Assembly: GCA_943788175.1 (NCBI GenBank) | Contig: CALSPG010000006.1 | Span: forward strand, 32,001-96,000 | DNA from: an uncultured bacterium | GTDB taxonomy: Bacteria; Fidelibacterota; Marinisomatia; Marinisomatales; UBA1611 | Direction: 5' to 3' | DNA length: 64,000 nt | Part shown: in pieces, positions 30,281-44,503 of the stretch | How the letters are laid out: every line of letters starts with the position of its first letter | How positions within the stretch are numbered: position 1 is the first letter of the stretch | Position numbers and translations under genes: made by a program | The notes under the pieces: generated by a model | What the model saw: the letters and a program-made list of their open reading frames with translations, nothing else | What the model was told of the DNA's origin: nothing | Database searches by the model: none

Positions 30281-32668
30281 TTATTTTTTCATCCAATAGT
30301 TTAATTTAATTACTAGAGCATTTGCTGAGCTATTTGTCCACTCTTTATCATTTTCTGAATAATACCTATTCTCATTTATACTGTAGACAACAAATATCGT
30401 ACTCCCTGGGTTGTACTCCCATCTAAGAACAAATGTCCCAATTTTATTTTCTACTTTAAAATTTGGATTATCATACATTGATAAATAATCAAATGGTTCT
30501 AGTTCCATAGTTTTTGGAAATAATAAGTTGTTATAATTATTGTATTTTATGTCCGCATAAAAAGGTTGATAGTATCCTTCAAATGTTAAGTCAGGAGAGA
30601 ATGTCCAGTTTAAACGGAGTTGAAGTTGTTCAGTGACTTGTTTTGAATTTGAATATATTCGAGAATATTCTCCATCATTTTCAAATATGTCAACATATTG
30701 CATGTATTTTGGAGATATTTGTTTCTTATAAACTGCTTGAATATTTAAAGGGTCAATCGGTTTATAAAGGAGACTAAAATCTGTAAAATATCCTTTACCT
30801 CTACGTTTTGCATCACCGACACCAGCATCAATAGAAAAAATTATTTTTTTTCTCCTATCTGATTTAAGCCAAAATCCATAAAAGGCTAATTTTTCAGTAG
30901 CATAAACCCAAGCTCTATCATCTCTGAAAATATCTTCATCGTCATAAGCTGATTTTTCAAATTCGAACCAAGTTCCAAATCTCCAATAATTTTTTAATAA
31001 CGTCCATGATTCTATCTCAATAATATCTTCAAGAGTTACATCATCTCCGTTCCATTCTTGTTTTAATTTTAGTTCTAATGATCCTCCTAAGATTGGGCCA
31101 AAAGGTTCTTGTTGTCTAATCTTAACCATCATCCCCATCCAAGCTAAATTATTTCTTTTCAAATAACCTATATCATTAATATCAAAGTTATCATCATATC
31201 GCCCATGCCAAAATCTAAGTTCCCACCATTTAGGGTTTTTATATCCAAGGTTAAATCTATATGCATTGCCTTCTTCACTTGTATTTGACTTTACTATTTG
31301 CCCGTTAGAAAACAATCTATTGTTCAGCAAACCAATTTTCCAATCAACCCCTGCCACATTAGATGAATTAATGTCTTTCCTAGTCACATCGGTAGCCATG
31401 AAACCAACTCTTGAAAATTTATTTATAATTGATTTTTCAATTCTACCCACTGAAAAATTGGTTTGAGGCTCTACTAAAAAACTTTCTTTTTTATTATTTG
31501 AAGTAATTAAATCTGCACTTTCTTCAGATGTAATAGCATTTATCATTCCATAATTCCATCCAGACGTCGTGGACCCAAGCAATTTGAGCGCACCTATAAT
31601 AGTAGTATTATCTGATAAGTTTTCTAGGTCTCCACTATCTGGTTCAAAATAATTTGGAGCAGATCCAATTCTTCTAGAATGAAACAACTTAAGTTTATGT
31701 TGAAAAAAGCTGGCACCTTCCGAAAAAAATGGCCTTTTTTCATCATAAAAAGTCTCAAAAGCACTAAGGTTTAAAACAGAAGGATCTGCTTCAACTTGAC
31801 CAAAATCAGGATTAATTGTTGCCTTAATTATAGAACTTGAGCTCAAACCATAACGTAAATCTACCCCGTAGTTAAAATTGCTTTTTTGCTCCATAAAACT
31901 TGACAAGCCGTAAGGTACGATTTCGAGCTTTTTTGGCTCAGGGATGTCTCTTAGCCCTTTCAAAACACCAAATGAAGAAACTATACCAACATGTGATTTT
32001 TGACGTCCAGGCCAAAGAACTTCTTCTTGAGTTTTATGAATATGCCTATTAAATGATATACCCCAAACCATATCTTTTTTATTTTCAAATTGAAAAACAA
32101 AAAATGGAATTCTTACCTCCGCAACCCAGCCACTATCGTTTTTTGAAACAGCAGCATCCCAAACAGCATTCCAACTTCGATCATAATCTTCTTGACCAGA
32201 AACGTTTACATCAATCTTTACTCCTGCTGCATTTATGCCAAACCATTTACCATTGTAGTCATCATTTCTTGAATCAATTGCAAATCCAACAAAATCAGAT
32301 GCATTATTAAAACCATCCATGTATGCGTCTCTTCTTGTAAGAGGTGCTCTAATTTTATCAGGCCGTGAATCAAAATTTTCAAAAGCTATATAAATTGCAT
32401 TATCATCATGTAAAATTCTAACTATTGTTTTTTCAGAAGGTACACCAAATTCAATTGGCTCAATTTGGTGGAAATCATCTAATGGTGTTGCATCAGCCCA
32501 AGATACATCATCAAGAATACCGTCAACAATCGGTGAATTCTCACATCTGGACGAATAGGCAATTTTATACCTTAATGAATCTGGGTTAATGTTTTTTCGA
32601 CTATTGCTGTTTCCGTAAGTAACGATACTTAAAAATAGCAGACTAAAGAAAAATTTAAGATGAATCAT
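30281..32668 (-). CDS. CBM9-like/DUF5916 domain outer-membrane protein
   Basis: Signal peptide; DGILDD.SW, W.AEVRIPF and NPDFGQVEAD..VLNLS.FE.F..EKRPFF motifs; barrel-like C-terminus. Confidence 0.8.
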   Translation of the reverse strand: MIHLKFFFSLLFLSIVTYGNSNSRKNINPDSLRYKIAYSSRCENSPIVDGILDDVSWADATPLDDFHQIEPIEFGVPSEKTIVRILHDDNAIYIAFENFDSRPDKIRAPLTRRDAYMDGFNNASDFVGFAIDSRNDDYNGKWFGINAAGVKIDVNVSGQEDYDRSWNAVWDAAVSKNDSGWVAEVRIPFFVFQFENKKDMVWGISFNRHIHKTQEEVLWPGRQKSHVGIVSSFGVLKGLRDIPEPKKLEIVPYGLSSFMEQKSNFNYGVDLRYGLSSSSIIKATINPDFGQVEADPSVLNLSAFETFYDEKRPFFSEGASFFQHKLKLFHSRRIGSAPNYFEPDSGDLENLSDNTTIIGALKLLGSTTSGWNYGMINAITSEESADLITSNNKKESFLVEPQTNFSVGRIEKSIINKFSRVGFMATDVTRKDINSSNVAGVDWKIGLLNNRLFSNGQIVKSNTSEEGNAYRFNLGYKNPKWWELRFWHGRYDDNFDINDIGYLKRNNLAWMGMMVKIRQQEPFGPILGGSLELKLKQEWNGDDVTLEDIIEIESWTLLKNYWRFGTWFEFEKSAYDDEDIFRDDRAWVYATEKLAFYGFWLKSDRRKKIIFSIDAGVGDAKRRGKGYFTDFSLLYKPIDPLNIQAVYKKQISPKYMQYVDIFENDGEYSRIYSNSKQVTEQLQLRLNWTFSPDLTFEGYYQPFYADIKYNNYNNLLFPKTMELEPFDYLSMYDNPNFKVENKIGTFVLRWEYNPGSTIFVVYSINENRYYSENDKEWTNSSANALVIKLNYWMKK

Positions 32669-37277: not shown

Positions 37278-38117
37278 ATGATTAAAAAAGTTTACCTATT
37301 TTCCTTTGCGATGTTTTTTTCTTGCGATGTTGGTGATTACCAGGATTGTAATAGCGTAATAAATGGAGGAGCTTACTTTGATGAATGCGGTAATTGTGTT
37401 GGTGGAAGGACAGGATTGACAGAGTGTACTACCGATTGCAATGGAACTCTTGGGGGAACTTCTTTTTTAAACCCTTGTAATATTTGCGTTGAGGGTAACA
37501 CGGGTATAAGTTTAGACTCTTGCACGAGCTTAAGCTATAATGGTGAAACATATAGAACAATTATTATTGGAAATCAAGTTTGGTTAGGTGAAGATCTTAG
37601 AACTAAAAATTTTAATGATAACTTACCTATTCCAGATTTTGATATATCAGAAGCTGATTCGATAGGCACAAAATTAGTGATTCCTAATTCAGCAATACAA
37701 ACTGACCAAGTATTTTACAGTCCACTTGCTGCATTAAACAACATGATAGCTCCAGATGGATGGAGAGTCCCAACAAAATCAGATCTAGAAAACTTATTAG
37801 AGCAACTGGGTGGAAATTCTATAGCTAGCGGTAAATTAAAAGAAACTGGATATAAAAGTTGGAACTTTCCCAACCAATTTGCTACTAATGAATCAGGCTT
37901 TTCTGCAAAAGGAACTGGCTACAGTAGTTCACTAGGAACTTTGAAAAATGTTGGAGAACGGTATTCATTTTGGAGCATAAATACTTTTGATGAAGGTGAT
38001 ACAACAAATACACTATATTGGACTCTTAGGCTTAGCTTTAACAGCAATTATGCTATTCTTGCACCTGATAGTGCAAATATAGGTCACCCCATCAGGCTAA
38101 TAAAAAATAATAAATGA
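37278..38117 (+). CDS. FISUMP (Fibrobacter succinogenes major paralogous domain) lipoprotein with Cys-rich repeats
   Basis: Lipobox FFSC; two DCN...GG...CxxCV.G.TG repeats; YRTIIIGNQVW, PDGWRVPT, ATNESGFSA and IRLIK motifs. Confidence 0.8.
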   Translation: MIKKVYLFSFAMFFSCDVGDYQDCNSVINGGAYFDECGNCVGGRTGLTECTTDCNGTLGGTSFLNPCNICVEGNTGISLDSCTSLSYNGETYRTIIIGNQVWLGEDLRTKNFNDNLPIPDFDISEADSIGTKLVIPNSAIQTDQVFYSPLAALNNMIAPDGWRVPTKSDLENLLEQLGGNSIASGKLKETGYKSWNFPNQFATNESGFSAKGTGYSSSLGTLKNVGERYSFWSINTFDEGDTTNTLYWTLRLSFNSNYAILAPDSANIGHPIRLIKNNK

Positions 38118-39022
38118 GTCCTGCAAAATCTTCCATAATAGCATCTATGCTATCAATCTTTATTTCATGTAATAGTGGAATAAACAATGATGAAAACGAA
38201 ATAATAAGTGAAAATTCTTATTTAAGTATATCGAATACTAATAATCAAAGCGAGGTTTCAGGGTTAGAGAACATTTATATAAATGTTAAAAACTTTACAA
38301 ATATATGGAAAATCTATTTAGTAATAACGAATAATCAATCTATTGCATTTGAAGATAGAATTTTATTAGATACTACAAGCTCATCTGATAGTATAATTTA
38401 TAAGACTATTTGGGATACTAATTTATTTCCAAATGGTAATTATGATCTTTTTGCAGAAATAATTGACAGCACTAATCAGAGAATAATCTCGACAAAAAGT
38501 TTTACCATAATAAACTATAATACCTTAAAAATTATTAATAATCATGAGGTTTCAATTAATTATCTAATTAACTCGAATAGTGGGATGCTTTTTTCAAATT
38601 CTATAACGCACCTTCAGATAGAAAAAATATTTGATGAGACCAATCTAAAATGTGATATTCAAGAACTTCCTTGTGGAACAACATTCTCATATAATTTCTT
38701 CGTTAAACCTGAAAGTATCGATCAACCAATAATAATTGAACCGGATAGCAACTCATTTTTCCTCAGAATACAAAATAAATTATTAGTAGAAAACTCTATA
38801 AATTCTGTTTTAATTCAGGCAAATGAAAATATAGAAGAGTGCAACAATTTATCTATTCAAAATGATAATCAAGTTTATTCATTAGGCTACTTTAATTTAG
38901 ATAATGATTTGTACCAGCAAGGGAAAGTAGAAATATTAACTAGATATGGTAATAATACAGACACTACGAAGTTGACATTTTTTAATAAATCAATATTAAT
39001 TGATACATTAATTATTAATTAG
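38114..39022 (+). CDS. Hypothetical lipoprotein (Ig-like N-terminal segment)
   Basis: FISC lipobox-like; WDTNLFPNGNYDL Ig-type motif; 4-bp overlap with the upstream gene. Confidence 0.65.
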   Translation: MSPAKSSIIASMLSIFISCNSGINNDENEIISENSYLSISNTNNQSEVSGLENIYINVKNFTNIWKIYLVITNNQSIAFEDRILLDTTSSSDSIIYKTIWDTNLFPNGNYDLFAEIIDSTNQRIISTKSFTIINYNTLKIINNHEVSINYLINSNSGMLFSNSITHLQIEKIFDETNLKCDIQELPCGTTFSYNFFVKPESIDQPIIIEPDSNSFFLRIQNKLLVENSINSVLIQANENIEECNNLSIQNDNQVYSLGYFNLDNDLYQQGKVEILTRYGNNTDTTKLTFFNKSILIDTLIIN

Positions 39023-39051: not shown

Positions 39052-40536
39052 CTACTTCAGCAATAATGCTTTTTTGGTATCAATAATTGAAGGAGTCTCT
39101 ATTTTTATAAAATACATTCCTGATGGAAATTTAGAAGCATTCCAGTTAATATTATGGAACCCAGCTGCAGTGTAAACATTATTAACCAGAATAGAAATCT
39201 GCTCACCCAACATATTATATACCACAACTGATAAGTTTGTTTCTGTTGGCAGAGAATAAGATATTGTTAATGTAGGATTAAATGGGTTTGGATAAAGACT
39301 TTTAATATTTGGAGTGTTTGGCAGAGATAATAATTCTCGTTCAGAAAATTCTTTTTCTACATTTGCTTTAATATGAAATCCTTTTTTTGATGCTATTACA
39401 ACATCATGAACATTTAAAATATGCTGACTAGGAATATTTAAATCAATTTTTTTAACTAAACTAGTTCCAGATAAATCATAGGCATAAAAATTATAATTAT
39501 TATTTTTAGAACTGTAAGTCATCGACCATCCATCTGGAAGAATTAATTGATCTAAATATCGATCAATCTTAGTAAAAGAGGATAAACTAAACTGGAATCC
39601 TCCAATTTCTGAAGTTGATTCAATGCTTATATAATTATTTTCGTTTTCTTGAGAAAAAAACAGGGTTCCTTCGTCTTCTTCATTGTTTAGAAAAGAAGGC
39701 ATATTATCAAACAACACCATATTAACTAGATTAACAACATCAATAATATTAACATTATTATCACCATTTATGTTTCCAGCCTGCTCTCTACATTCTGAAA
39801 TGGGTAATAACTCTGAATCATTTAGTTGAAAATGATCAAGTAATGCAACGACATCAAAAAAATTGATAATAGGCAAATTATTTTCGTCTAGGTCACCATT
39901 TACGTTTCCCGTGCTAAAGACATTAACATTATCGCAAATATCACAAGCATCCCCACTACCATCTTCATCTATGTCAGCTTGTAGGGGGTTAAAATTCTCG
40001 GGACAATTATCTTCATCAGTATCGATACCATCCTCATCAAGATCAGATGGCAAATCTTCTAACGCTTGATTAATTGTAGCTATTATTGCAGCTTGATTAT
40101 ATCCGGTATCTGAGTAGAGAACTTCACCATCGCCACCTATAACAACATTATGGGGTATGTATCCAACACCAAAAAGACCATAAATATTATTTACGTCATC
40201 AACAATAGGATGAGAAAGACCAAAAGTTGTTCCCCAACCGGTACAACTGTATGGCTGGTTCCAATCTTGACCAAACCCTACTAAGACTAATGAATCATTT
40301 GTATATTGTTGAAATACTGCTTCTGCCTGCGGAGCCTCCGTAGTACAAGATGGTCACCAAGAGGTAAAAAGATTAATCCATACAACCCTATCTCTACCAT
40401 TTTCCTCGTAAGACCACGTACCGTCACCATTATGACAGATATCTCCGGAAAAATCGTTCACATAATCGCCTACTGTATATGTCTGACCAAAAGCACTGAC
40501 GAAAAACAGTGAGTATATAATGAGAATAATTTTCAT
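39052..40536 (-). CDS. Putative secreted selenoprotein, 494 aa: signal peptide, thioredoxin-fold UxxC redoxin, TSP3 repeat, dockerin-like, Por/T9SS-type C-terminal tail; TGA at 40354-40356 read as Sec61
   Basis: Frame stays open across the TGA: VVWINLFTSW-U-PSCTTEAPQAE...GVGYIPHNVVIGGDGEVLY...LEDLPSDLDEDG...; joins ORFs 40354-40536 and 39052-40053 in frame; ends YPNPFNP...SGMYFIKI...KKALLLK. Confidence 0.82.
40326..40353 (-). promoter_or_regulatory. Candidate bacterial SECIS element
   Basis: mRNA after UGA: CCAUCUUGUACUA-CGGA-GGC-UCCG-CAGG; GC-rich hairpin whose G-starting loop lies 17 nt after the UGA; possible lower stem CUUG/CAGG. Confidence 0.55.
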
Positions 40537-40648: not shown

Positions 40649-42634
40649 TTAAAATATGGCACTGTAGGAAAGTTTTAGCCCATCGTTAAATGGTTGTAAT
40701 ATTCTACAAATTCCGTTACTACAAACCAAGCCACCTTGAATAGACCCATAAAGAAATGAAATCCGCTGAGTTGATGAAAGATTATATGAAAATTCTAAAG
40801 ACACCCATTTATTCTTAGTAAATGGTGGTGGATTATTATCATTTCTCTGTCCTTTGAAATATTTTACGTCTCCATATATAAACGCTTCAAGAGGATTATA
40901 CTTTGGGTCAATAGTAATAATTTCTTGAACATTTGTCCAATCATAGTTTAGAGTAAGTGCCCACTTTGAAGCTTTACCAATTGATAATGAAAACATCCTA
41001 TTAATTTGAAAAGGTGTTTCGTTTGGGTAATTACTAGTAGTCTCATTGCTGGAGAGATTAGGATTAGTCTCATCATTTAATATCCATGTAGAATCGGCAT
41101 AATTATAGAACCCACCAGCATTTCCTTTTTTTACATTATTTTTATATCTTTCTTGATATGCAAGACCAAGTCCTATTGAATAGCCATTATTTAATGAGAG
41201 TGTAAAATCAATGGGAATTGTAAATGATTTTGATTTTTGATAAAGCATAGTCTCTATCTGATTTGTTGTGGTGTCCATGCTAACTATTTGAGAGTCTAAA
41301 TAGAACCAATCTTCTCCGTACCATATCGAATCAGTATACGTCCAATTTTCTGAAATAGTGTTAGAGAGACCTTTGAAAAACCTATTTACTTTAGTGACTT
41401 CCTCATTTGTTCCGATTGCTGTTTTGAACTGCAGTCTATTATTTAAAAGATAACCATTTAGTTCAGCATAAAACTCTAAGTAGGGTAATGCACTAAAATT
41501 AGTTGTCGGCAGGAGACCAGATATGTTTTTTCTATTCCATTCAATCGGACTTATAGATTCCCAAGTATCGTTTCTACTTAAATGAGAAAATTGTGTCACA
41601 ACTTGAAAACCATTCGACAAACCACCAGATAGCTCGACTTGATAACCGCGCTCATCATTTGCGTTAGTTTGATGAGCAGCTCTACCCAAAAAACTATGAT
41701 TTTGTTCGCGATATAGAATTGGCATAACCTGATAATCAATTCTATTACCATAATTATTTATAATATAATCAGTATCAACAGGGTTAAGTCTATCAAAACT
41801 ATACCGTTTGTATTCAAAGAACAAAGACCAGTTCCCTACATAATAATTTGAATTAAAATAAGCAGCTGAACCTCTTTTTAATGGCGTAAGTGATTCTATC
41901 TCTTGCCCTGAAAAATTAGTTTGGAAGGTTCTACTTTTTGATTGTTTGTCCATATATTCTATAAAAATATCCATATTAGACCCAAACCAAGATATATATG
42001 CCCCATGCAATCTATGATTAATATCCACAGTATCCATCACGCCAAGAGGTTTCAATTGATGAAGTTCATTTGACTGTAAAAAAGACAACCCATAACTAAA
42101 AGGGTAAGCCTCAAAATTAATGTTCGTGGCATCAATATTGTGGGTAAACTCAAACTCTGGGTGCCTCAGGTCAGCACCGAGTTGAGCATTCACAGTCTCT
42201 CCGCTCATTTGAGTCACACTAATATTGTCAGATTGATAATTAATCAGATAGCCTCTAGAACTATTGTCAAAATCAATACCCTGATCATCTAATTGGGCAA
42301 GTACTAAACCCCTTCCCCATACCTCATAAATATCACCATATTTTATTGACCATGGACCAGAACTATATTCAATTCGGTACTTTCTTAAATCTTTAATCGA
42401 AAATCCTAATTCTGGAGGATCTGAATATTCATATTGCAACCATGCCGAGAAATTGTTTTTAAAAAAATTAAGATCCATACGGTTTTCCATATAGGTAAAG
42501 TCATCATAGCTATCACCGAAATTCATGACAATACCCGCATTATAATTCCAAAAATCTAAATCAAAAACTGAGAAGGCGTCTTGTTCAGATTGAATAAGAA
42601 AAGGGAAAACAGCTAATAAAAATTTTTTGTACAT
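40649..42634 (-). CDS. DUF6029-like outer-membrane protein
   Basis: Signal peptide; GDIYEVWGRGLVL motif; C-terminal GGLVCSNGICR...GLKLSYSAIF with terminal Phe; adjacent to TlpA. Confidence 0.7.
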   Translation of the reverse strand: MYKKFLLAVFPFLIQSEQDAFSVFDLDFWNYNAGIVMNFGDSYDDFTYMENRMDLNFFKNNFSAWLQYEYSDPPELGFSIKDLRKYRIEYSSGPWSIKYGDIYEVWGRGLVLAQLDDQGIDFDNSSRGYLINYQSDNISVTQMSGETVNAQLGADLRHPEFEFTHNIDATNINFEAYPFSYGLSFLQSNELHQLKPLGVMDTVDINHRLHGAYISWFGSNMDIFIEYMDKQSKSRTFQTNFSGQEIESLTPLKRGSAAYFNSNYYVGNWSLFFEYKRYSFDRLNPVDTDYIINNYGNRIDYQVMPILYREQNHSFLGRAAHQTNANDERGYQVELSGGLSNGFQVVTQFSHLSRNDTWESISPIEWNRKNISGLLPTTNFSALPYLEFYAELNGYLLNNRLQFKTAIGTNEEVTKVNRFFKGLSNTISENWTYTDSIWYGEDWFYLDSQIVSMDTTTNQIETMLYQKSKSFTIPIDFTLSLNNGYSIGLGLAYQERYKNNVKKGNAGGFYNYADSTWILNDETNPNLSSNETTSNYPNETPFQINRMFSLSIGKASKWALTLNYDWTNVQEIITIDPKYNPLEAFIYGDVKYFKGQRNDNNPPPFTKNKWVSLEFSYNLSSTQRISFLYGSIQGGLVCSNGICRILQPFNDGLKLSYSAIF

Positions 42635-42673: not shown

Positions 42674-43189
42674 TTAATCCTTTTTTAAGGATAATAGAAG
42701 ACTTTCAATCTGTTCTTTAATTTCTAATTCTTCTCCAGGCATATACCCTTGATGTCGCCACTTTACTGTTGCATCTTTATTAACAAGAATCAGATTTGGC
42801 ATTATTTGGCCATTTAGCTTTTTTGAGATTTGCTGATTAGGGTCTATGCTTACTAAAAAATCGTAACCCTTACTATTTATATACGCTTTGACTTTACCTA
42901 AGCTCCTTGGTGTGTCTTGGTTTATCATTACTACTGTTAAACCCTGGTTTTTGTAATCATTATGATATTTGTTTAGATGCTTCATTACTTGCTTGCAAGG
43001 TTTACACCAAGTCGCCCAAAAATCAAGCAAAACAGGACCAGTCTTTAAAAGCTTATACAATGTAGTTTTTTTCCCATTTAATAATTTTAGATCAATGTTT
43101 GGGATTTTACCAAGCGATACATTATCTTGGCTATAAATAGATATCATATTGAAAGATAAAATAAGAATTATTAATTTTATTTTCTTCAT
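42674..43189 (-). CDS. TlpA/ResA-like thiol-disulfide oxidoreductase
   Basis: Signal peptide; LLDFWATWCKPC active site; MPNLILV cis-Pro region. Confidence 0.92.
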   Translation of the reverse strand: MKKIKLIILILSFNMISIYSQDNVSLGKIPNIDLKLLNGKKTTLYKLLKTGPVLLDFWATWCKPCKQVMKHLNKYHNDYKNQGLTVVMINQDTPRSLGKVKAYINSKGYDFLVSIDPNQQISKKLNGQIMPNLILVNKDATVKWRHQGYMPGEELEIKEQIESLLLSLKKD

Positions 43190-43192
43190 ATG

Positions 43193-44503
43193 CTAAAGCA
43201 CAGGCTCCAAAAAATTTTTTAATTCATTTTCATTTATAAACTTCAAACTTACATTGCTTAGATTTTCAACATCGGACATCGGAAGAATAAATTCATATTT
43301 TGCATGAATATTTACTGTCTCCATAGCAACCTGTAAGGACCATCCCCCGACTGTAAATTGAATCATTGGTGTAAACTGGTTTTCTGGAAGGTATAATACT
43401 TTTTCGCTCTTTTTAGAGTGCCATTGCTCTTCAGGAGTATCAGCAACTATTACAATTGGAGTACCTTCTTTATTGAAAAATCTAATTACAGGAACGGTAC
43501 GATGACTGCCTGAAATGATACGATTTGTTAGCTCATCAGAAAGGTTAAATGATTCTTTGCTAAAATAAAAAATTGTAAGACTTCCATTCTGTTCAATTCC
43601 TGTATATGGAAGAGTGTTTAACATTTCCTTAATTATTTCATCTTTAAGAGAATATGTAACATGAAATTGAACAGTGATATAACTGTCATCATCTTTATGA
43701 TAGATAAAGCTGGGTTTTTTCATTTCAACATCATAAGGGTTATCTATCAATTTATTTAAAACATCTTTAAGCAATTCAGTGTTTGGTTTTAAATCAGGAT
43801 CTTCTTCTACTAACTGATTTGCAGAAAAATCCATTGTCCACTCACCACCGTTATCAAAAAGGGTTACATCATTCTTAGATGTTAAGTTTTGATTTTCTTT
43901 TAAACCTAAAAGAACATCCATAGACTCTTCAAGTTTTTTAAATTCCTGGCTCAAGTTTTTTGTTACCATTTCAGACTTAACTGTTACTGGATCACGAGTC
44001 ATAGCAGGTTTAGGATCAATAAATTTTGGTAACACTACCCCTACACTATGTTTCTTATTTGGAAGATATGAAATTATCATCGAGCGTATATTATCACTAA
44101 CCTCATTTTTCATTTTACTTATATCACTATATTCAGCAGAGATATCCTTTGACTCTATTTGATCCCAAGTTGCTAAGTCAATTAATTGGACGGATACATT
44201 AATTTTTTCTAACTGCCTTGAATATTTTCCTAGAAGTAGAAGGTTTCTTGAGGAAATAGGTTGTTTAAGCATAAGTGATCTATCGTTCATAATGACTTCA
44301 AGATCTTGCTTGTTTTGAATCAATAAACCTGGTTCATTTTTAAATTTATTACTAACCATATCAGATAACCCTGATGCAATCCATTCAATAGTCGGATCAT
44401 CTTTTAGATTATCAAAAGGTATTACATAAAAATACACTATAGGCTGCCTAGCAGCAAGCGTAGCTAAAAAAAGTAATAATGTTAGAGTTTTCCGCATCCT
44501 CAT
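43193..44503 (-). CDS. Hypothetical exported protein with TolB-N/FlgO-like N-terminal domain
   Basis: Signal peptide; VIPFDNL...EWIASGLSDMV...LLGKY...VQLID pattern; 3 bp upstream of tlpA. Confidence 0.6.
   Translation of the reverse strand: MRMRKTLTLLLFLATLAARQPIVYFYVIPFDNLKDDPTIEWIASGLSDMVSNKFKNEPGLLIQNKQDLEVIMNDRSLMLKQPISSRNLLLLGKYSRQLEKINVSVQLIDLATWDQIESKDISAEYSDISKMKNEVSDNIRSMIISYLPNKKHSVGVVLPKFIDPKPAMTRDPVTVKSEMVTKNLSQEFKKLEESMDVLLGLKENQNLTSKNDVTLFDNGGEWTMDFSANQLVEEDPDLKPNTELLKDVLNKLIDNPYDVEMKKPSFIYHKDDDSYITVQFHVTYSLKDEIIKEMLNTLPYTGIEQNGSLTIFYFSKESFNLSDELTNRIISGSHRTVPVIRFFNKEGTPIVIVADTPEEQWHSKKSEKVLYLPENQFTPMIQFTVGGWSLQVAMETVNIHAKYEFILPMSDVENLSNVSLKFINENELKNFLEPVL

Follow-up and report, generated by a model that had tools for sequence, protein, structure and literature searches.

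A probable selenocysteine redoxin with a cohesin/dockerin-type body and a type IX sorting domain, encoded across an in-frame UGA in an uncultured SAR406 bacterium

We analysed a window of 64,000 nucleotides (nt) of DNA from an uncultured SAR406/Marinimicrobia bacterium of the order Marinisomatales (positions 32,001 to 96,000 of contig CALSPG010000006.1, GenBank assembly GCA_943788175.1) and focused on a minus-strand gene at 39052..40536, which appears to encode a selenoprotein, i.e. a protein with selenocysteine (Sec, U) at an in-frame UGA codon. Unless a genome contig is named, positions are those of the window. The gene consists of 494 codons and a TAG stop (39052-39054) and holds a single in-frame TGA. 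Its frame starts at an ATG at 40536, reads MKIILIIYSLFFVSAFGQTY...VVWINLFTSW, then TGA, then PSCTTEAPQAE..., and runs on to the TAG at 39052-39054. Standard open reading frame (ORF) finding yields a 60-amino acid (aa) ORF (40354-40536) and a 333-aa ORF (39052-40053), the TTG start of which is only apparent, and the 100 codons after the TGA are free of stops (PSCTTEAPQAE...GDGEVLY...) and join the 333-aa ORF. An earlier note on this DNA had described this arrangement, a 60-aa ORF ending in VVWINLFTSW-TGA with the frame open for 100 codons into the 333-aa ORF, and we could reproduce it. When TGA is translated as U, a 494-residue product results in which the sole non-standard codon is that of U61, in the motif W-U-P-S-C; this product aligns end to end with 12 orthologues. 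Further, a Redoxin/AhpC-TSA domain (residues 22-148) spans the TGA, its core being encoded by the 100 hidden codons, and there is no start codon between the TGA and the thioredoxin-fold core. In 6/6 close orthologue pairs, the ratio of nonsynonymous to synonymous substitution rates (dN/dS) of codons 62-161 was 0.027-0.103, with similarly low values in the flanks. Because dN/dS of the hidden codons is low and the redoxin domain crosses the TGA, we conclude that the split frame is not due to chance, in support of the earlier note's proposal of one 494-aa protein. Public records show the gene differently: of the 120 homologues listed from a large protein collection, the codon is rendered as W in 18 (FTSWWPSC) and the motif is absent from 102, and the fragments carry the NCBI name "T9SS type A sorting domain-containing protein."

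The redoxin (residues 22-148; 40093..40473, minus strand) is of the ResA/TlpA-like thioredoxin-fold type, as judged from Pfam matches and an alignment with ResA. Pfam scores were 31.3 bits for AhpC-TSA (cut-off 26) and 28.9 bits for Redoxin (cut-off 26.6), and Redoxin/AhpC-TSA was matched in 13/13 orthologues. The active site reads W60-U61-P-S-C64, and the cis-Pro motif reads G-Y-I-P128-H-N; K and R are absent from a long segment surrounding U61. The nearest solved relatives of the domain are ResA, StoA, and TlpA, the closest being ResA 4nmu_A (E 4.4e-8), whose WCKPC...E.P aligns on WUPSC..EAP and whose cis-Pro motif GPLPTS aligns on GYIPHN. Because the WCKPC of 4nmu_A aligns on WUPSC, U61 replaces the attacking Cys of the W-C-x-x-C motif, which is where the TGA had been placed before.

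The UGA codon assigned to U61 lies at 40354..40356 (minus strand); it occupies the same column in orthologues and is unchanged in contigs from DNA and RNA libraries. When 41 genomes belonging to this order were searched in six frames, full-length matches were found in 13 (37-100% identity, 37-94% for the orthologues) with exactly one TGA each, and in 13/13 of these orthologues the TGA falls in the identical W-U-x-x-C column (WUPSC, WUGPC, or WUSPC). Conservation is equally strong on either side of the TGA, the segments after it including PYSC, FG, and LFGxGYIPHNVV, and W60, U61, C64, and P128 are invariant in the alignment. We also examined 40 family frames from 34 loci, and 20 further regions were fetched; 32 of the 40 frames are Sec forms, six are Cys forms (one of them a TlpA-type neighbour), and two have no placeable motif. 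In a second set, 79 loci of named public assemblies, 53 frames match the redoxin profile and 47 of them have TGA, the remaining six being two family Cys forms (L100 and L101), three TlpA neighbours, and one fragment that lacks the site. The named assemblies with TGA frames belong to Marinimicrobia and CSSED10-310. Because the 34-locus and 79-locus sets overlap partly in genomes and the relatives are non-independent, these figures are counts, not statistics. Cys stands in the U61 column at loci L048, L054, L045 (two frames), L056, L100, and L101, and L056 (Cys) forms a close pair with L057 (Sec).

We note that the TGA also recurs in independent sequence data. DNA contigs from two studies cover the full 1599 nt compared, with two and four differences, respectively, none of them at 40354-40356; the change nearest to the TGA is 40360 A>G, which is synonymous (Ser). 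Metatranscriptome contigs from two studies span the TGA unchanged, which shows that it is present but does not prove transcription, as RNA libraries may contain DNA. Two of the RNA runs (X15 and X17) have some bins without cover and are uninformative either way. Overall, the conservation of the TGA at residue 61 together with both of its sides (13/13 orthologues and 47/53 frames), the pairing of Sec with Cys at this residue in a minority of homologues, and the persistence of the TGA in other data sets all agree with the earlier note's reading. As a separate observation, these public runs also contain short contigs from other organisms whose match is confined to the 65 nt of window positions 40321-40386, at about 90% identity; this match, which takes in WINLFTSW-UGA and the hairpin described below, shows apparently strong nucleotide-level conservation across paralogues.

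The machinery that the Sec reading calls for is present in the source genome (G000; 2.27 Mb in 12 contigs, about 92% complete, about 32% G+C), as the earlier note's proposal would have it. A tRNA-Sec scored 57.3 bits, over its cut-off, and was reported by ARAGORN as tRNA-SeC with the anticodon tca. The selA (467 bits) and selB (316 bits) genes are adjacent and without internal stops, and both exceed their curated cut-offs, as does selD (396 bits), which has one in-frame TGA of its own. TGA is the terminator of 192/1101 ORFs of at least 250 codons, and no TGA occurs inside 424/625 long frames delimited by TAA/TAG. Genome-wide recoding of TGA was considered and is ruled out, because TGA ends 192/1101 long ORFs and both selA and selB are uninterrupted by stops. 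Outside the window, selD (G000:C7:396580-397506, minus strand) carries its in-frame TGA in HGAG-U-ACK, followed at equal spacing by a GGUCC-UGC-GGACU hairpin. Also outside the window, a 172-codon frame at G000:C5:278820-279335 (plus strand) has an in-frame TGA in FPYADTPG-U-VKEACGF and a 3-nt GUU hairpin loop at +21..+23 after the UGA. Its TxxU motif is that of the Sec peroxiredoxins (Prx) in the available text of the Global Ocean Sampling (GOS) and Sargasso Sea papers (PMC2398784, PMC1088965), and the frame is probably another mis-called selenoprotein.

Downstream of the UGA of our gene lies a hairpin resembling a Sec insertion sequence (SECIS), UUGU.CU.CGGA-[GGC]-UCCG.AG.GCAG (40323..40348, minus strand), which was delineated by comparison; its apical loop (40334-40336) is 17 nt after the UGA. 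The 3-nt loop, GGC, is at +21..+23 from the U of UGA. In the Sec forms, GAG GCU CCG (E-A-P), which forms the CGGA-[GGC]-UCCG stem-loop, is near-invariant, synonymous sites included (columns 21-29 at least 90% conserved in 32 sequences), whereas the Cys form L048 retains the residues E-A-P, written GAA GCC CCA, without the hairpin. The apical stem shows compensatory changes from C-G to U-A in four sequences (GUGGAGGCUCCAC) and to G-C in one, the stem of L050 shows one from G-C to U-A, and in the lower stem (CUGU/ACAG plus AAU/AUU, or CU/AG) covariation arises by substitutions that change the amino acid. We scored an 11-pair helix across the 32 sequences, with the lower stem entered by hand: 83.2% of its cells are paired compared with 33.0-45.5% in slid controls, 33 cells are changed on both sides compared with 3-17, and its covariation score of 0.286 compares with 0.044-0.131 in the slid controls and was reached by 0/500 shuffles. 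The selD gene and the TPGU Prx-like frame of the source genome likewise have a GC-rich stem of 4-6 bp with a 3-nt loop (UGC and GUU, respectively) at +21..+23. A small apical loop with a G is given as a feature of bacterial SECIS elements in the portion of the Sargasso Sea study at hand (PMC1088965), and our hairpin agrees with that description, being near the UGA and having a G-containing GGC loop. We conclude that, in the source genome, a G-containing 3-nt loop at +21..+23 after the UGA marks putative Sec codons.

The rest of the product is modular. Residues 1-17 (MKIILIIYSLFFVSAFG, then Q; 40486..40536, minus strand) form, by inspection, a signal peptide, and the N terminus is hydrophobic in 13/13 orthologues. 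The redoxin is followed by thrombospondin type 3 (TSP3) Ca-binding repeats (residues 164-205, DLDEDG...DNC...DIDEDGSGDACDIC; 39922..40047, minus strand), assigned from Pfam TSP_3 matches in orthologues; TSP_3 was matched at E<=1 in 13/13 orthologues (best E 3e-6), and C178, C198, and C201 are invariant in all of them. Next comes a dockerin-like module with a duplicated Ca-loop/helix (residues 206-281; 39694..39921, minus strand), which was delineated from helices in the AlphaFold2 (AF2) model and from Dockerin_1; the three helices (226-237, 245-254, and 264-276) pack on a β-sandwich, which spans 288-397 in the model, Dockerin_1 was matched in 19/28 relatives at E<=1 (best 3.9e-4), and the profile's top PDB sequence matches are dockerins that align along the two repeats (E 0.017-1). 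The sandwich (residues 286-398; 39343..39681, minus strand) has a cohesin fold according to the AF2 model and Foldseek. The AF2 model of residues 200-410, built on a 28-sequence alignment, has a mean predicted local distance difference test score (pLDDT) of 85.2 and a predicted template modelling score (pTM) of 0.82, and the best matches of the sandwich in a Foldseek search of the PDB are mostly cohesins (2xdh, E 1.6e-7; 2w1n; 2jh2; and type I/II cohesins from dockerin complexes), 2w1n also being the top match for the whole-protein model. No Pfam cohesin match was found in the sandwich region. In a complex prediction with the cohesin and dockerin modules as separate chains, the interface score ipSAE was 0.44, compared with 0.00 for the best control, at least 96% of contacts were shared between runs, and the pLDDT of the partner was 52 or more. 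The mark used for such predictions is reached by 58/80 solved complexes and 2/110 mismatches, passes of <=0.60 comprise 7/80 solved complexes and both mismatches, and such low passes are often wrong. Further, because solved cohesin-dockerin complexes exist, the pass may reflect likeness only; the prediction lends weak support to contact between the cohesin-fold and dockerin-like modules.

The C terminus (residues 414-494; 39055..39297, minus strand) is a type A sorting domain of the type IX secretion system (T9SS), with 45 bits for PF18962 (cut-off 27) and 43.3 bits for TIGR04183 (cut-off 23), and it is over threshold in 13/13 long orthologues; the segment over both curated cut-offs is also given as residues 414-489. 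The search for T9SS machinery covered SprA, PorU, and PorV. The translocon SprA (586.9 bits) and the sortase PorU (583.6 bits) are both over cut-off in the source genome, and the sorting-domain part at the C terminus of the PorU profile is matched by at least about 50 frames there. The SprA match (G000:C7:328244-334275, plus strand, outside the window) is in several pieces, one of which (328662-329009) has an in-frame TGA; this might reflect a frameshift, a fault in the assembly, or a further recoding site. As for the modules proposed before, the redoxin and the sorting tail are over their Pfam cut-offs, TSP3 is sub-threshold but recurs in 13/13 orthologues, and the dockerin similarity is weak and consistent; the list was right in outline and had missed the cohesin-fold domain between dockerin and tail.

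The selenoprotein gene is the last in a co-directional minus-strand cassette consisting, in order, of genes for a 436-aa protein, TlpA, a DUF6029 protein, and the selenoprotein. The 436-aa exported protein (43193..44503, minus strand) has no Pfam or NCBIfam match, and ESM Atlas gave weak leads to CsgG/LpoB/TolB_N (0.80-0.83). The TlpA/ResA-like Cys redoxin (171 aa; 42674..43189, minus strand) matches Redoxin at E 1e-21 and the ResA subfamily at 87 bits and reads FWATWCKPC, as had been pointed out. The DUF6029 protein (661 aa; 40649..42634, minus strand; PF19494, E 2.1e-28), for which ESM Atlas returned nothing beyond DUF6029's own clusters, has only two Cys residues, C638 and C643, in the motif GG..C..G.C close before its C-terminal SYSAIF. 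This pair is retained in 93% of 44 aligned sequences and could be a redox-relevant or structural disulfide. Among 99 related loci, homologues of DUF6029 were found in 65, of TlpA in 41, and of the 436-aa protein in 17, the latter two counts being limited by flank length; DUF6029 is directly beside the selenoprotein gene in the loci whose coordinates were inspected. GlnRS/GluRS-type genes lie upstream of the cassette, and a DsbD-type membrane protein is encoded elsewhere in the source genome (DsbD_TM, 71.8 bits). Two convergent genes lie downstream, both conserved within the genus only: one at 37278-38117 (plus strand), for a lipoprotein-like protein with a Fib_succ_major domain and a Cys-rich N terminus, and one at 38114-39022 (plus strand), for a 302-aa protein without a family match. 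A scan for promoters and terminators did no better than shuffles (29 promoter-like sites compared with 31.9 expected).

In the source genome we found no further family members beyond the single long-form copy, the other redoxins being Cys or TPGU Prx-like. Related genomes also hold short forms of about 270-330 aa, in which the dockerin is the last module, and mid forms that have the dockerin and the tail without the cohesin (362-396 aa). Further, at least three more classes of UxxC selenoprotein with a signal peptide and the same body occur in related Marinimicrobia: an EDFTGL-U-PYCPSASFA class (loci L031, L032, L033, and L035), which fits the NCBIfam "Omp28-related selenoprotein"; an MWTRTT-U-SVCPYARGA class (L025 and L036); and an LFTSTT-U-GPCASAEPV class (L038). 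Each of these is preceded by a DUF6029 paralogue, and TlpA occurs too in loci of the L033/L035 type. Selenoproteins with other heads and the TSP3, dockerin, cohesin, and T9SS body also follow a TlpA-DUF6029 pair. Because the body and the TlpA-DUF6029 cassette recur with other UxxC selenoproteins, they look like a lineage-wide functional module and not a one-off fusion. Two related genomes (G010:C1:258854-271916 and G011:C37:83191-116359) have tandem arrays of at least five redoxin-TSP3-dockerin paralogues in which Sec and Cys forms are mixed. Such arrays suggest local expansion of the gene family and repeated switching between Sec and Cys.

Taken together, we consider UGA61 almost certainly to be a Sec codon and, overall, the gene very likely to encode a 494-residue Sec-redoxin of SAR406 that is exported and surface-displayed via T9SS, with the redox mechanism proposed here; the display on the cell surface itself is probable. 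We propose that SelB and Sec-tRNA would read the hairpin as a SECIS and insert Sec at UGA61. The selenoprotein would pass the inner membrane via the secretory (Sec) translocon and the outer membrane via T9SS, and PorU would attach it to the cell surface. There, the U61 selenolate may attack external substrates at their disulfides (or peroxides or other electrophilic groups), after which C64 would resolve the U61 adduct into a selenenylsulfide. The Ca-loaded dockerin-like module would be seated on a cohesin-fold module, either its own (in cis) or that of a neighbour (in trans), and the same cohesin-fold module could also hold the short dockerin-ending forms of related genomes. Reduction of the U-x-x-C pair would most likely fall to the co-inherited TlpA of the periplasm, itself fed by DsbD, at least while the protein passes through that compartment. 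A more far-reaching idea is that Marinimicrobia build a cellulosome-like surface "redoxosome" in which UxxC selenoenzymes (ResA-like and Omp28-like) plug by their TSP3-dockerin parts into T9SS-anchored cohesin-fold sockets, each enzyme having a TlpA and a DUF6029 barrel with a Cys pair of its own, which would carry the reducing power of DsbD over the envelope; we offer it as a speculation that we ourselves doubt. If true, the "redoxosome" would be an extracellular selenium-based thiol-redox machine that attacks disulfide-rich marine organic matter.

Several points weigh against this interpretation. The presence of Sec rests wholly on comparative sequence evidence, and expression of the gene is not proven by the RNA-library contigs, which can contain DNA. 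Regarding the hairpin, the 71 nt after the UGA fold no better than shuffles (z +1.4; 188/200 shuffles fold as well), a search of the hairpin region against Rfam gave chance-level matches only and no SECIS family, and RNAalifold on the 32 sequences recovers only the 4-bp apical stem. Further, the lower stem is unpaired at some positions in 7-14/32 sequences, and in the Sec form L057 the common hairpin is missing, another hairpin being present farther downstream. Single-sequence folding gave no signal; the hairpin is visible only by comparison across sequences. Among the modules, TSP_3 (PF02412) scores 15.9 bits in the selenoprotein itself (cut-off 25) and Dockerin_1 (PF00404) 12.7 bits (cut-off 22.9), the TM-scores to cohesins are modest (TMt up to about 0.51), and the whole-protein AF2 model is mediocre, with a pLDDT of 69.4, and poor around the active site, with values of <50 at residues 58-65 and 88-114. 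The PorV-like protein scores 131 bits against a cut-off of 250. Finally, a surface redoxin would lack an obvious electron donor outside the outer membrane, and, because no external donor is evident, the catalytic cycle is the weakest step of the proposal.

The selenoprotein might be a surface antioxidant (sacrificial or recycled) or a metal(loid)-binding shield, and not a disulfide reductase, with the body serving as a spacer. Fast reaction of selenols with peroxides and with soft metals is established in selenoenzyme chemistry, and the domain is also an AhpC-TSA match (31.3 bits) with no external reductant in evidence. We nevertheless regard this function as unlikely, since the nearest solved relatives (ResA, StoA, and TlpA) are disulfide reductants, the co-inherited TlpA suggests a thiol-exchange relay, and the motif is the thioredoxin-type UxxC and not the TxxU of Prx as given in the available part of the Sargasso Sea paper (PMC1088965).

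It is also conceivable, and in our view distinctly unlikely, that the redoxin works within the envelope, in concert with TlpA and the barrel of DUF6029, forming or isomerising Cys pairs in DUF6029 or T9SS cargo, in which case the T9SS tail would serve only for final disposal or anchoring. Conservation of the TlpA-DUF6029-selenoprotein cassette, including its Omp28-type paralogous versions, would fit such a role, as would the DUF6029 Cys pair (93% of 44 sequences) and the existence of tail-less short forms, but gene neighbourhood alone is weak evidence for binding, the sorting domain is over threshold in 13/13 long orthologues, and SprA and PorU are present in the source genome. Readthrough of the TGA as Trp, Gly, or Cys, by an alternative code or near-cognate suppression, is very improbable. 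It is the way in which 18/120 listed public homologues are written (FTSWWPSC), the source genome is AT-rich (about 32% G+C), and organisms that use code 4 are often AT-rich; yet TGA ends 192/1101 long ORFs here and 424/625 long frames are free of it, the full Sec machinery is present, homologues show Cys and not Trp at the site, and a covarying hairpin with the geometry of that in selD stands at the SECIS position. An origin of the TGA by sequencing error or by recent nonsense mutation, the gene being broken or truly two ORFs, is scarcely credible. ORF finding does yield 60-aa and 333-aa ORFs, public gene calls mostly begin past the TGA, and the active-site motif is missing in 102/120 listed homologues, the printed examples of which begin just past the TGA; yet the same TGA is found in 13/13 orthologues, with identity as low as 37%, and in another 47 frames as well as in contigs of independent studies, dN/dS after the TGA is 0.03-0.10, and no start codon lies between it and the thioredoxin-fold core.

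We retain the reading of the gene as a Sec-redoxin that is probably surface-displayed. SAR406/Marinimicrobia are abundant in the ocean and hardly any have been cultured, Fidelibacter being a cultured relative, and in standard annotation the catalytic domain of this protein, and hence the selenium demand that it implies, is invisible, as the public records examined either cut the gene short or give Trp for the TGA. When the gene is read correctly, a protein that combines a T9SS tail with a cohesin/dockerin-type body is seen to bear a Sec redox centre. The rule of a loop at +21..+23 could help to re-annotate Sec genes across the phylum. The enzyme class is known, and its first fusion partner has probably been seen before; the cohesin/dockerin/T9SS body, the assignment to a phylum, the TlpA-DUF6029 cassette common to several selenoprotein classes, and the SECIS geometry appear to be new. 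A literature search found no selenoprotein described as T9SS cargo, with dockerin/cohesin modules, or from Marinimicrobia in this sense.

Both ResA and TlpA consist of a single domain that is tethered to the membrane on its periplasmic side, and they are reduced by CcdA or DsbD. Our protein resembles ResA, TlpA, and StoA (PDB 4nmu, 1st9, and 3erw) in its fold family, in the alignment of W-C-x-x-C-x-x-E-x-P on W-U-P-S-C-T-T-E-A-P, and in being exported, and differs from them in having Sec in place of the attacking Cys and in being a five-module T9SS cargo. Catalogues have listed UxxC "Prx-like" selenoproteins from 2005 onwards, with 22 Sargasso Sea sequences in the available part of that report (PMC1088965), and a "Prx-like thiol:disulfide oxidoreductase" is listed in PMC5029168. 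The GOS study of 2008 describes, in the text available to us, a marine-enriched family Prx-like 3 (UxxC, weak pfam08534 similarity; 68 sequences from 20 samples) and a fusion of Prx-like 3 with Unknown_3, in which the redoxin is joined to a domain that has three conserved Cys, among them those of a CxxC (PMC2398784). Like that fusion, our protein is a marine redoxin with weak similarity to pfam08534/pfam00578, a UxxC motif, and then C178 and C198-x-x-C201; because the described Cys pattern matches, the 2008 survey had probably already met the family, in fragments of read length, and interpreted its Ca repeats as a possible redox domain. Unknown_3, which figures as a possible redox domain in what we have of that paper, reads here as TSP3 repeats leading into a dockerin-like module, so that the "Unknown_3" of the ocean metagenomes has a probable explanation as TSP3 Ca-binding repeats. 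Compared by description, the fusion is presented in that text without a taxon, sorting tail, cohesin domain, or gene context (PMC2398784). The architecture is thus less unprecedented than the earlier note had implied, given the 2008 fusion with the same Cys pattern, as far as its published description goes (PMC2398784), and the Ca module of NCBIfam NF045500.

The NF045500 profile (Omp28-related selenoprotein) matches residues 148-275 of our protein with positions 257-376 of its 377, at 105.6 bits, and U-P-Y-C proteins of this type occur in Marinimicrobia in paralogous TlpA-DUF6029 cassettes with the same cohesin and T9SS body. In contrast to NF045500, where the N-terminal domain is Omp28-like, it is here a ResA-like redoxin, and, because the whole-protein score is under the 200-bit cut-off, our protein is not a member of that family. 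The NCBI-curated NF041054 ("ResA-like WAxxUGC motif-containing protein") also describes a ResA-like selenoprotein; membership in it was considered and rejected, with 16.1 bits against a cut-off of 300 and the motif W-U-P-S-C, not WAxxUGC. As in cellulosomal and non-cellulosomal cohesin-dockerin pairs (PDB 2xdh, 2w1n, 2jh2, and 2y3n), a cohesin-fold sandwich occurs with a duplicated, dockerin-like Ca-loop/helix module; unlike in those systems, both are in one chain with a selenoenzyme and a T9SS anchor, and the sequence similarity is sub-threshold. Finally, an N-terminal signal peptide and a PF18962/TIGR04183 C terminus, in a genome with SprA and PorU, liken the protein to T9SS type A cargo such as the gingipains and the Flavobacterium chitinase.

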